UHGV virus genome: UHGV-0204897
Reading direction: 5' to 3' (one strand)
Source: a virus
DNA length: 49,111 nt
Shown: positions 8,233 through 29,939 of the stretch, one piece after another
How the letters are laid out: the number at the start of each line of letters is the position of its first letter
How positions within the stretch are numbered: the first letter of the stretch is position 1
Translations under genes and position numbers: made by a program
Notes under the pieces: generated by a model
The model's input: the letters and a program-made list of their open reading frames with translations, nothing else
What the model was told of the DNA's origin: nothing
The model's database searches: none

Positions 8233-8394
8233 ATGACTTTAGCTGAACGTGTAAAGAGAATTGAGAGCGAATTAAAAGATATTAAATCGCAACTCAATTC
8301 TGGTACCGATTCTAGGAAAACAGCAAAAGCAATGCCCTTATCCAGTCTTGCAAAAGAGGGAGGTATCCCTGGGGGGTTAGTTAAAAAATGTTAA
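8233..8394 (+). CDS. Small hypothetical protein (53 aa), AT-rich
   Basis: RBS 'gggaga'. It is convergent with the aspartic protease gene and overlaps it by 18 nt. Confidence 0.3.
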   Translation: MTLAERVKRIESELKDIKSQLNSGTDSRKTAKAMPLSSLAKEGGIPGGLVKKC

Positions 8395-8841
8395 CTCAAA
8401 TACTTGATTGGAAAAATCCATCGTAAGGGCGCCCATTTTAATTAGTTGCATTCCGAAAACGACTTGGAATTTTCTCCCGTTACTTACCAATGGCACTGAA
8501 GTCAATTCTGTTGAAAAAACTCTTTCGTCCTCAGTGAACGATATTACCGCATGCCGAACTGTAGTTTCTATTGTTGAGGTGGCTCCGCTCACAGTTGTTT
8601 TTTCCGCGATTGGGAGTTTTAAATCGTCAGCAAAGTCTGAATCCACATAGCAAAGATCTGCTCCGGTATCTATAAGTGCGTAGGCACCAGCCTTCAATCC
8701 ATTTGGTTTATAAACGTTTATATCTTTTGAGCTACTTGGCCATACTGTCAATGGAACTACGGGAATTGCATGCTCCGTGGGGGTATCTGATACCGATCCA
8801 TCAATAGGGGAAATAAACTTGATTTTTACTTTGGTGATCAT
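8377..8841 (-). CDS. Retropepsin-like (clan AA) aspartic protease
   Basis: Active-site motif ALIDTGADLCYV (hydrophobic-hydrophobic-D-T-G-A-D) plus a downstream GMQLIKMGALTMDF motif. 154 aa. AT-rich moron on the opposite strand between gpM and gpL. RBS 'ggaaaaagg'. Confidence 0.65.
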   Translation of the reverse strand: MITKVKIKFISPIDGSVSDTPTEHAIPVVPLTVWPSSSKDINVYKPNGLKAGAYALIDTGADLCYVDSDFADDLKLPIAEKTTVSGATSTIETTVRHAVISFTEDERVFSTELTSVPLVSNGRKFQVVFGMQLIKMGALTMDFSNQVFELTFFN

Positions 8842-26898: not shown

Positions 26899-27033
26899 TT
26901 ACCCCCACCAGGAACCATTTTCATCTATCCATTCACACCATTGGTCAACCGTCCATTTAGATGAATCGGCATCAGGAACGCGGCATGAGTAAAGCCCCTC
27001 TCTGTAAAGTCGGCGCTTAGTTTTTTTCAGCAT
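26899..27033 (-). CDS. Small basic protein (44 aa, MLKKTKRRLYREG...). First ORF downstream of pL.
   Basis: RBS 'gaggg' within the second copy of CAACTTATTGAGGG. Below the ORF-track cut-off. Confidence 0.3.
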   Translation of the reverse strand: MLKKTKRRLYREGLYSCRVPDADSSKWTVDQWCEWIDENGSWWG

Positions 27034-27424
27034 ATTGCCCTCAATAAGTTGCCATTAACGCGAAATGCTTTGGCGATTGGATGGCCGGTGCTGATCTCCG
27101 GCATTGCCTACGTTAGCGGCCTTCAGACAGTTCATCCGCTCGCTTCCACGTCGCGCATCAGCCTGCGCATTCACCCAATCCCAAAACATTCCCTATATTG
27201 GTCAGCGCCAACTACCTGCCAGTGTTGCCCGTTCTCACGCCGTTCTCGCTCTCGCGCGGGGATACTCTCTCACCGACCGGATCGCACCCGGTGATACAGC
27301 ACGTTTTTCGTGTAAGGGTCTAAACAGGTCATTGACGCTGTAAATCTGCATGTTGTTAAAAAGCAGGCGACTTGCTGTCCGCCGCTGGCTAACTTCGCTC
27401 AGCTGTCGATGTTTCGTTTCGATG

Positions 27425-27475
27425 GATTGATAATCACATATTGTGTTTTATTGGTCAACACGAATTGTGATTAAT
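27425..27475 (-). promoter_or_regulatory. OL/pL: leftward early promoter with two repressor operators
   Basis: Operators CACATATTGTG (27435-27445) and CACGAATTGTG (27459-27469), the latter identical to the OR sites. Minus-strand -35 TTGACC (plus 27453-27458) and -10 GATTAT (plus 27430-27435) at 17-bp spacing. Confidence 0.55.
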
Positions 27476-27568
27476 GATGACAACAAAGCGTGTTGTTGCT
27501 GATTTGAAAGGGAATTTATTTTTTTAAATACCAGTGCTACGCTTAAAAAAACAGCAGGAGGGATGTGC

Positions 27569-27766
27569 ATGGTTCTGGATGAAGAGCGTATAAGCATGAA
27601 AATTCAGGCGATGGGGCGGGCGGTGATGGAATTGTCACTGGCTGATTTACCCATGACCCAGCAAAACATCATCGACAAGCTGAAGCAGTACCGGAAGGAA
27701 ACAGGAAACGTGATAGGGAAGGAGGTGAACAGGGATGCTGCGGAGATAGTCAGGAAAGGGCAATAA
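27569..27766 (+). CDS. Small hypothetical protein (65 aa), convergent with the rex-position gene
   Basis: RBS 'ggaggg' lies 6 nt before the ATG at 27569. The protein is soluble. Its stop abuts the shared terminator hairpin. Confidence 0.45.
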   Translation: MVLDEERISMKIQAMGRAVMELSLADLPMTQQNIIDKLKQYRKETGNVIGKEVNRDAAEIVRKGQ

Positions 27767-27788
27767 AAACCCGGCGCAGTGGCCGGGT
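27765..27788 (-). terminator. Terminator ending the cI-side transcript (minus strand)
   Basis: CCCGGC-gcagtg-GCCGGG hairpin with AAAAA on the plus side, which reads TTTTTATTG on the minus strand. Confidence 0.6.
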
Positions 27789-27802
27789 GGTGGTGAAAAA
27801 TA

Positions 27803-28666
27803 CTATTTGGCATCCACTATAAATAGCCTATTTATTTGCCCTTTTTTCACAGTGGCCTTTGCAGTTATTGTGAATATGGATGATATGTCGCCCTTCGTTG
27901 AGATATAGGCGCTAAGGGCATTGAGGTAGGGGTTGTTCTTTTTGCTTGCAGCAGGATCACTGATTTCAGAAGTTATTCTCTTCTTCGAATCATCTCCTTC
28001 AAGTATGATCTTTGCTGTCATATTCTGTGCGTCAAACTCCGTAAGGTAAGCTCGATACTCTCTTAATCCTACAATCTCATCATCTTCAAGCTTGTCTATC
28101 TGCTCTTTATCCGCCGCGTCCACCTTTAAAAGACACCCATCTTTGTTAGTGGAAATGCTGATTTGATCACATGTGTTTCCAATCGGAGAAACGGCCTGCC
28201 GAACTGCGGGGCGAAGTTCTACAGCCATCTTATCAATCACTGAGATTAACTTATCGATGGTTCCAGAGTCCTTGTTACCTAGCGCCTCTATGGCCTTTTC
28301 GAGAACCTGCTGTAGAGCTTTCATTTCATCTTTCTTGTTCGAATTTCTCGCAAATATATATTGAAGTATCGCACCCAGTATAGTTGCGGCGATCCCTGAG
28401 AACAACTGATTCTGAGTAACGAAATTTAGCGCAGCTTCTAAAGTGAAGCAATTTGCCCTTGCCTCTCTCGCATATACCTTAACGTCTTGATATGTGGATA
28501 TTTTGCTGTATTTCTGAGTGGCTGAAAATGATGCTGCTGTAGATAAAACTTTAGAGAATCCCTTTAGAGACTCCCCAAGGCAATTGAGATCAATTTCATG
28601 GTTTTCAGCGTCCTTACCGTCATATCTTAGTGATATCTTTATATCTTGTAATACCCCGTCATCCAT
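27803..28666 (-). CDS. Uncharacterised membrane-associated protein in the rex/immunity-accessory position. Candidate exclusion or abortive-infection protein.
   Basis: 287 aa immediately downstream of cI, as lambda rexAB is. Markedly AT-rich. One central hydrophobic helix ([19 protein letters not shown]) and a coiled-coil-like C-terminal half. No recognisable family. Confidence 0.6.
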
Positions 28667-28715
28667 AACTGCATCCTCAATTCATTGTCATTTGATCGTT
28701 CAGTTCACTCATCGG

Positions 28716-29357
28716 CTAAACCAGCCGCAGCTTCGTCTCTACAGCTACACCAATGATACGGCAGTTACCATTAATAGGCACGAGTGGCCATTGCGGGTTG
28801 AGGCCCTTCAGATACTTCTGTGCACCATCGATCACCAGTTTCTTAAAGGTCGCCTCGTTCGAATCGGATAGCTTAGCTATAACCAGACTGCCATTTACCG
28901 CATCTCTACCGGTGTCGAAAAGTACATAGGTTCCTTCAGGTATGCTCAAGCCAGTAGGGGCTGTCATTGACTCGCCCTCAACGAGCAACCAGAACGCCTC
29001 CCCCTGAATGTGAGCATCTGATTCAAGCCAAAGGTCGATATCTTTAAGGGTGTACGGCTCAACAGCTTCGCACCATGCTCCTGCCTGCACCTTGCTTATA
29101 ACTGGGTATTTATCACCTGGCTTGTAAGGGCCTTTGTAGTCATCGCCAAAAAGCAGCTCGGCAGGCGCAACCCCCAGCGCCTTAGCTATTACAGTTGCAT
29201 CATCAACGCTAACGCTCCTGGTGCCTGATTCGTAATTCCCTATGCGTGACTGCGAGGCCCACCCGCAAAGCTCTGCGAGAGCCTTTTGTGACAGCCCTTT
29301 ATCTTCGCGAAGTCGCTTAATGCGGCCCGCTATATCTTCGATTCTATTCATTCTCAT
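28716..29357 (-). CDS. cI: CI-type repressor (N-terminal HTH plus C-terminal S24 LexA-like peptidase domain)
   Basis: HTH GLSQKALAELCGWASQSRIGNYESG. An Ala-Gly (VQAGAW) cleavage-site candidate. S24 Ser in VEGESMTA and Lys in ATFKKL. Confidence 0.9.
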   Translation of the reverse strand: MRMNRIEDIAGRIKRLREDKGLSQKALAELCGWASQSRIGNYESGTRSVSVDDATVIAKALGVAPAELLFGDDYKGPYKPGDKYPVISKVQAGAWCEAVEPYTLKDIDLWLESDAHIQGEAFWLLVEGESMTAPTGLSIPEGTYVLFDTGRDAVNGSLVIAKLSDSNEATFKKLVIDGAQKYLKGLNPQWPLVPINGNCRIIGVAVETKLRLV

Positions 29358-29362
29358 TTTGT

Positions 29363-29432
29363 ATCACGCGCCGTGTTAAAAAGCTTTACACGAATTGTGT
29401 TGATTAATAATCACGAATTGTGTTTAATGATG
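29363..29432. promoter_or_regulatory. OR region: three operators with pR, and pRM inferred
   Basis: Operators CACGCGCCGTG (29365-29375), CACGAATTGTG (29390-29400) and CACGAATTGTG (29413-29423). pR -35 TTGATT (29400-29405) and -10 TTTAAT (29423-29428) at 17-bp spacing. Confidence 0.6.
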
Positions 29433-29460
29433 CTGAGTGACCATTCTTGAAAGGATCAGC

Positions 29461-29667
29461 ATGAACAATATCGCCAACGAACGTAAGAAGCTTGGCATCA
29501 CTCAATCAGAGTTAGCAGGTTCGTGCGGCTGGAACCAGTCCCGCCTTGCTAACTATGAAGCTGGCATACGAGCACCAGACCTGGATTCGTGCCGCCGCCT
29601 GGTTGACGCGATGAATAAGCTGGGGAGCAATACATCTCTCGATGCGTTGTTCCCACCAAAAAAATAA
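29461..29667 (+). CDS. cro: Cro-like HTH (XRE family) repressor
   Basis: RBS 'aaagga'. HTH LGITQSELAGSCGWNQSRLANYEAG. First gene from pR. Confidence 0.8.
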   Translation: MNNIANERKKLGITQSELAGSCGWNQSRLANYEAGIRAPDLDSCRRLVDAMNKLGSNTSLDALFPPKK

Positions 29668-29717: not shown

Positions 29718-29939
29718 ATGGAAACCTTAACGACACGCAACAAAGCGGAGGCACGACGAATTGAGAGTTGGGTGCAGCGTCAAATCGCTGATCTGGGTAC
29801 CGCCCGGATAGCCGAAGTAGCTGGCATCAACAAATCCACAGTCAGCCGGTGGCGGGAAAACCTGGTACCGAACATGTCGCTGCTGCTGGCCATCCTGATT
29901 TCGAACAGGGATGGAGTGAAGGGAGATTTTGAAGCATGA
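29718..29939 (+). CDS. cII: CII-like transcriptional activator
   Basis: 73 aa in the cII position, with HTH IAEVAGINKSTVSRWR. Confidence 0.5.
   Translation: METLTTRNKAEARRIESWVQRQIADLGTARIAEVAGINKSTVSRWRENLVPNMSLLLAILISNRDGVKGDFEA

Follow-up and report, generated by a model that had tools for sequence, protein, structure and literature searches.

A relative of phi80 gene 40A beside the cI repressor gene of virus genome UHGV-0204897: a single-gene cargo cassette and candidate stand-alone defence gene

In bacteriophage lambda, the rexAB genes lie between cI and OL/pL and are co-transcribed with the repressor, and superinfection exclusion (sie) genes adjoining the repressor are a known arrangement as well. 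BstA of Salmonella BTP1, an experimentally validated abortive-infection protein, has also been described as encoded downstream of cI (PMC8585504). Here we analyse virus genome UHGV-0204897 (49,111 nt; this whole stretch is referred to as the window), whose immunity region is of the lambdoid type, with a focus on a minus-strand gene at 27803-28666 that encodes a protein of 287 amino acids (aa). An earlier note on this DNA had placed the gene downstream of cI and upstream of OL, which the coordinates confirm, and had proposed it as part of a novel defence system. We found the gene to be a relative of phi80 gene 40A that travels as a single-gene cassette, and on balance we consider it probable, judged from sequence and context, that it is a stand-alone, prophage-expressed defence against other phages, acting by exclusion or abortive infection.

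With RexAB and the SieB-type genes of P22, the 287-aa gene has only its position in common. There is no similarity in sequence or architecture and no Pfam or PADLOC match, and in contrast to RexAB it is a single gene whose product has one hydrophobic segment, with no RexB-like protein of four transmembrane segments. The likeness to BstA is closer, as the 287-aa gene would also be a single-gene, lysogen-expressed cargo directly downstream of cI, and in 9 of 77 sister phages precisely this slot, from cI to a small convergent open reading frame (ORF), is filled by BstA homologues. However, the two proteins are not homologous: BstA combines a KilA-N domain with the BstA C-terminal domain, the 287-aa protein DUF7946 with a predicted OB-fold, and PADLOC gave no BstA match here. 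The phage phi80 protein 40A (PHI80_46, AFV29182.1; 40A/40B of X13065), in turn, is 62% identical across 99% of the length (tblastn). Its gene has the same orientation and the same position, flanked by cI and the annotated OL/pL, and is followed by the same small convergent ORF. It nevertheless represents a separate allele, with gene DNA only 60-67% identical, and the window gene is paired with another cI and operator specificity. The phi80 annotation of 40A as "acetate kinase superfamily domain" found no support in Pfam or NCBIfam scans.

Although the protein had been described as devoid of recognisable motifs, DUF7946 matches residues 11-191 over the complete profile (positions 1-183 of 183; 197.1 bits, 3e-58, cut-off 27), DUF7947 matches residues 201-287 (61.2 bits, 1e-16, cut-off 27), and PHROG 5147 spans the full length (residues 1-287 of 287, 6e-166). 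Relatives with 86-99% identity occur in Enterobacter and Klebsiella, those with 56-68% in Serratia, Raoultella, Rouxiella, Citrobacter, Proteus and Morganella, and one with 49% in Vitreoscilla. An exhaustive profile search yielded 499 cluster representatives (at the 50% identity level), nearly all of 265-320 aa; both domains are retained in every full-length member checked, and a search for other architectures with a profile of the N-terminal domain recovered solely the same two-domain proteins. By these matches the gene is a member of a known family, catalogued in Pfam and PHROGs with phi80 40A as founding member, and is not new to science as had been supposed; its description as functionally uncharacterised still holds.

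The repressor gene directly upstream on the same strand (28716-29357, minus) encodes HTH_3 and Peptidase_S24 domains. The 287-aa gene starts 49 nt past the cI stop codon, and its ATG is preceded, at a distance of 7 nt, by the ribosome-binding site GAGGA (28678-28674) within this spacer (28667-28715). Neither a terminator nor a promoter-like site was called in the spacer, from which we infer co-transcription with cI. At the other end lies an intrinsic terminator (27761-27788, minus strand). Its GC-rich 7-bp stem (27788-27769), 14 nt beyond the stop codon, leads into UUUUUAUU in the minus-strand RNA alone; in the plus-strand RNA the hairpin precedes GGUGGUGAAAAAU and lacks a U-tract, so that it would end the leftward cI-40A transcript and does not qualify as the canonical bidirectional terminator for which it had been taken. 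An Rfam scan of 27300-28800 returned no match.

The AT-richness reported before is evident: the GC content of the gene is 41.6% (41.3% at third codon positions), the lowest value among all 864-nt segments of the stretch, whereas cI has 51.1% and the window as a whole 52.3%. The exact 287-aa protein occurs in five loci, paired with five different repressors. In these five loci, which differ in immunity type, the DNA from the cI-40A spacer through the terminator is 100% identical to the window, while the 3' half of the small convergent ORF shows 92-99% and its 5' half 66-100% DNA identity. In the four loci whose cI/OL differ from those of the window, identity drops to about 50% in the operator cassette and to 54-64% at the 3' end of cI. 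Full identity from spacer to terminator amid diverged flanks means that the mobile unit is the single gene with its ribosome-binding site and terminator. This comparison delimits the 287-aa gene as a self-contained single-gene cargo ("moron") cassette at about 27761-28715, and its horizontal acquisition, suspected before from composition, is supported by the low GC content and by the identity of the cassette across differing cI/OL types. The small ORF and the 3' end of cI serve as the homology on its flanks.

Homologues are found next to repressor genes in many other genomes. Of 79 IMG/VR loci, 73 have 40A behind a cI-like repressor gene of the same strand, 57 of them within 150 bp; Morganella, Mannheimia and Vitreoscilla show this arrangement too. 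The slot between the small ORF and cI is highly variable in content. For 77 IMG/VR loci we counted about 35 architectures and 55 protein clusters. Besides BstA, this cargo includes HEC-04 (an OLD/Gabija/AriA-like ATPase), PDC-M24A/B, PDC-M66A/B (HipA_2 and DUF3037) and PDC-S13 (Bro-N), furthermore MqsA-type and SocA/Panacea-type toxin-antitoxin modules as well as NYN, P63C and ParA-like proteins. Many slot proteins have no Pfam or PADLOC match, for example ORFs of 302, 344 and 320 aa in three of the loci. In an Erwinia sp. locus (L021, 3188-3933), the gene of a 177-aa protein with a Tlde1 domain and a hydrophobic ORF of 71 aa lie between cI and a 92%-identical 40A gene, which indicates that the slot can stack several cargo units.

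Alpha-, Beta- and Gammaproteobacteria contain more distant homologues, of 28-41% identity, that have no repressor neighbour. One, within a GPA-replicon element, immediately precedes Kiwa KwaA/KwaB and PDC-M36A, another adjoins RmrT and an IrrE-HTH gene, and several adjoin transposases. The Vitreoscilla prophage copy follows a cI-like repressor and is itself followed by a SIR2/PDC-S25 gene. Such neighbourhoods are the usual signature of a stand-alone defence gene, by association rather than proof, and in this context, with defence systems, PADLOC candidates and toxin-antitoxin modules in the slot, the candidacy for anti-phage defence put forward in the earlier note is reasonable. The slot from the 3' end of cI to the 65-aa gene that forms its other border, as found in phi80/HK639-like phages of Enterobacter, Escherichia and Klebsiella, is comparable to the P2/P4 hotspots and, given its many unannotated cargo architectures, offers a mining ground for new defence genes.

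The AlphaFold2 model of the 287-aa protein, computed with a 99-sequence alignment, has a mean predicted local distance difference test score (pLDDT) of 90.3 and a predicted template modelling score (pTM) of 0.73. Its alpha/beta-helical N-terminal domain consists of strand 10-16, helix 27-50, strands 62-82, helix 87-108 and helices 112-158; a beta-hairpin (168-182) and a beta-barrel (197-287) come next. In the predicted model, residues 197-287 form an OB-fold, that is, a five-stranded closed beta-barrel superposable on known OB domains. The C-terminal half had been read as coiled-coil-like, which the barrel contradicts, with helices in that half only at 112-158. Resemblance to OB-fold small barrels (SilF/CusF, RPA, Ten1, YgiW and the anticodon-binding domains of tRNA synthetases) is at the level of the fold, with 4-14% identity, and the ligand of the domain cannot be inferred from it. 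Foldseek against the PDB, run with a first, weaker model, gave only sub-threshold OB matches, and the three phage proteins that a structure search of BFVD returned are uncharacterised and thus uninformative. Searching the PDB by sequence and by profile with the family likewise gave nothing meaningful; the best match, prefoldin (E 0.007), was discarded as a product of helical bias. Conserved positions include R14, D16, G17, D19, A20, H23, S33, G36, C73, P161, G163, D237, P238 and Y247; no known catalytic motif is recognisable.

The central hydrophobic helix described before does exist, as residues 88-106 within helix 87-108 reach a Kyte-Doolittle value of 1.85 over 19 residues. Its assignment to the membrane is unproven: the hydrophobicity is marginal, and the Pfam domain 11-191 runs across the helix as one domain. 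Across the family, the median of the maximum 19-residue Kyte-Doolittle value is 1.67, and 58 of 99 members reach at least 1.6. The helix is rich in small residues, which form a small-xxx-small pattern (S90/G91, A94, G98), and has RNSNKK behind it. Its quality as a transmembrane segment is borderline, and it may be an anchor, a latent membrane-inserting helix or a buried core helix.

The 287-aa gene is thus a cassette inserted into a hypervariable slot, which is bordered by cI and by a conserved gene of the phage backbone beside OL, and in the lysogen it is most likely transcribed together with cI from pRM, up to its own intrinsic terminator. If it is a defence gene, the C-terminal OB-fold might act as a ligand sensor for nucleic acid or a phage protein, and the N-terminal helical domain, with its glycine-zipper-like helix (S90/G91, A94, G98), as an oligomerising or membrane-perturbing effector. 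This division into sensor and effector is speculative, and we regard it as doubtful. A more specific version, by which the whole DUF7946-DUF7947 family with phi80 40A would be a new single-protein abortive-infection or exclusion system in which the OB-fold senses phage-made single-stranded DNA, RNA or protein and frees the buried glycine-zipper helix, which would oligomerise and depolarise the inner membrane, appears unlikely.

Several observations weigh against a defence function or against parts of this mechanism. PADLOC reported for the 287-aa protein weak partial matches to the candidates PDC-S42 and PDC-M63B. The PDC-S42 match (22 bits, 2e-5) aligns residues 9-136 with profile positions 4-130 of 302 and is thus short of full length. 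Both matches lend lesser support to a defence role, and their weakness and confinement to the N-terminal part count on the other side. Similar matches of the N-terminal domain, at residues 11-151 (0.0095), 11-196 (1e-8) and 10-188 (1.6e-7), come from the set of PDC-M63B, NCBIfam NF053583 and PHROGs 3243, 13337 and 28486, of which NF053583 (LAPAL_fam, "LAPAL motif-containing putative phage structural protein") matched below its threshold. The likeness of all these families, PDC-S42 included, to the 287-aa protein is weak, restricted to the N-terminal domain and below family thresholds, and their C-terminal parts differ. No catalytic or toxin domain is recognisable in the protein. A literature search found no paper on DUF7946, DUF7947 or PDC-S42 and no phenotype for any family member; HepS, svsR, SNIPE and DefensePredictor, which were also checked, are unrelated. 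In distant members helix 87-108 is less hydrophobic, and a sum of Hessa-scale values made by hand, and not the output of a tool, gives an apparent insertion free energy of about +1.6 kcal/mol. With its borderline hydrophobicity and the lower values in distant members, the helix may be a plain buried core helix. Expression from pRM, finally, is deduced from the DNA sequence.

A further point concerns phi80. Lysogens of phi80/Lula are said to block T4 development completely and to lower the P1 titre 10-fold (PMC2885432, Rotman et al. 2010). The genome of DH5alpha (NZ_CP025520.1, 127164-129117) contains intact phi80 cI, 40A (WP_000432054.1) and the small ORF (WP_000362427.1), and wild-type T4 is routinely plaqued on this strain (PMC7588440). 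Since DH5alpha keeps cI-40A and still plaques T4, we rejected as insufficient the idea that 40A causes the T4 block; the phi80 orthologue alone is unlikely to explain it, and this too speaks against defence. DH10B, TOP10 and NEB strains match the adjacent phi80 DNA from OL to the small ORF, and phi80 40A is present in DH5alpha, DH10B and TOP10. With 40A already in the E. coli strains used most for cloning, its function is cheap to test. Should the family prove to be a defence system, a function would be assigned to a phi80 gene that was named already in the early record X13065.

The earlier note had combined the 287-aa protein, as membrane effector, with the product of the convergent small ORF, as soluble partner, into a two-gene defence system. 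This ORF (27569-27766, plus strand; 65 aa, PHROG 3975) has the strong ribosome-binding site ascribed to it, AGGAGG 8 nt before the ATG at 27569, a start to which the N-termini of homologues align and which is favoured over the first ATG at 27563. Pairwise ratios of nonsynonymous to synonymous substitution (dN/dS) among seven alleles are 0.10-0.36, and 0.10-0.21 save for the closest pair; by this measure it is a real gene under purifying selection. Phage phi80 carries the same small ORF; JX871397 leaves it unannotated, but PGAP calls it in the DH5alpha genome. In favour of a partnership, the 287-aa gene and the small ORF are convergent neighbours in the window, in phi80 and in loci L010-L014, and in Klebsiella loci the equivalent position is likewise taken by a small convergent ORF. 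The latter ORF, however, is not homologous: it encodes 67 aa, is acidic and helical, lies in Rac-like prophages (L015-L020; 4897-5100, minus) between the shared terminator and the operator region, and is thus a positional analogue that is also seen in 13 of 77 IMG/VR 40A loci.

The 65-aa ORF itself is present in only 9 of 77 IMG/VR 40A loci and absent from the 40A loci of Morganella, Vitreoscilla, Mannheimia and Erwinia. Conversely, 277 IMG/VR loci encode the small ORF, and among the best 79 with enough flanking DNA a 40A homologue is found in one; a cI-like gene lies 0.8-1.9 kb from the small ORF in 77 of these 79, with about 35 other cargo sets in between. In HK639 (HK639_46) and Enterobacter phage ENT1, the small ORF sits beside pL next to slot cargo unrelated to 40A. 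Between loci whose 40A genes are 100% identical, identity of the small ORF falls to 78%, and a recombination junction lies within this ORF. As an obligate pairing, the two-gene system is already refuted by these comparisons, and in any form we consider it extremely unlikely. The rare co-occurrence and the discordant divergence mark the 65-aa ORF as part of the phage backbone, bordering the cargo slot beside OL, and not as a partner of 40A. An identity with YmgB/AriR was rejected for it: PF10798 scored 13 bits (E 0.08-0.09), below its cut-off of 22.3, and there was no PDB sequence match to AriR.

Three further explanations leave the 287-aa gene on its own. It could encode a constitutive inner-membrane protein, anchored by helix 88-106, that blocks phage DNA entry as SieA or Sie2009 do. 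The single hydrophobic helix with its small-xxx-small pattern and the basic RNSNKK behind it would fit such envelope exclusion, as would the known placement of sie genes beside repressors. On the other hand, the marginal hydrophobicity is not conserved family-wide, there is no signal peptide, and the charges imply an N-out/C-in orientation, in which an 86-residue charged N-terminal domain would have to be translocated. Pfam and AlphaFold also agree on residues 11-191 as one domain spanning the helix, and we think this explanation quite unlikely. A modulator of the lysogeny switch or of prophage physiology that binds nucleic acid through its OB-fold, analogous to what is reported for lambda RexA in the switch, would have no part in defence; it would account for the position directly after a cI-type repressor in 57 of 79 viral loci and for the nature of the C-terminal domain. 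Yet the same gene is combined with at least five unrelated cI/operator specificities, and family members occur outside immunity regions, beside Kiwa, RmrT and insertion sequence (IS) elements, which together point to a function independent of a particular switch, so that such a role is very unlikely. Lastly, the gene might be other lysogenic-conversion or host-fitness cargo for stress tolerance, competition or virulence, unrelated to phages. The slot does hold cargo that does not look like defence, such as the Tlde1-domain protein beside 40A in Erwinia, and no defence phenotype is known for the family. Against this, defence or toxin-antitoxin genes dominate the neighbourhoods, and carriage by phages, satellites and IS-flanked islands, as seen for this family, is typical of defence genes; we consider this explanation unlikely.

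Beyond the slot, the regulatory elements of the immunity region could be located. A pL-like promoter on the minus strand (27430-27470) has a -35 element TTGACC (27458-27453) and a -10 element GATTAT (27435-27430) with TG. It overlaps two OL operators (27434-27446 and 27458-27470), whose core CACnAATTGTG is shared with the OR operators in the cI-cro intergenic region, ACACGAATTGTGT (29388-29400) and TCACGAATTGTGT (29411-29423). pRM must lie in the same intergenic region. On the plus strand follow cro (29437-29667) and cII (29718-29939). A comparison of 27300-27570 with loci L010-L014, L001 and L002 revealed that an OL operator cassette of about 100 bp is exchanged to fit each cI type, with at least four different operator sequences, while the nutL leader and the promoter/ribosome-binding-site region of the small ORF, which flank it, are conserved. 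The case illustrates neatly how immunity modules are swapped between fixed junctions.

An extended -10-like element, TGcTACGCT (27535-27543, plus strand), lies 34 nt upstream of the small-ORF ATG and just beyond the operator cassette that is specific to the immunity type. The motif TGnTAYGCT is conserved in 80 of 81 related loci across differing operator cassettes, and the element is probably the small ORF's own promoter, abutting OL. As there is no plus-strand terminator, the small-ORF transcript would run antisense into the slot cargo. It is better supported than the rightward promoter proposed previously (TTGACG with TGtTAAAAA, near 27331-27361), which was not called in our scan and overlaps the counterpart of the nutL boxA annotated in phi80. 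The first leftward ORF after the nutL-like region encodes 44 aa (26899-27033, minus strand; PHROG 1871) with an Arg/Lys-rich N-terminus, MLKKTKRRLYR, and could be either a short antiterminator resembling N or a small early gene unrelated to it.

Another low-GC ORF was noted far from the immunity region, at 8377-8841 on the minus strand, between the tape-measure gene and the downstream tail genes. It encodes 154 aa with a DTGA motif, has no PADLOC match and scores 26.7 bits against Pfam Asp_protease_2 (cut-off 24.3); it looks like a second moron, located in the tail module.

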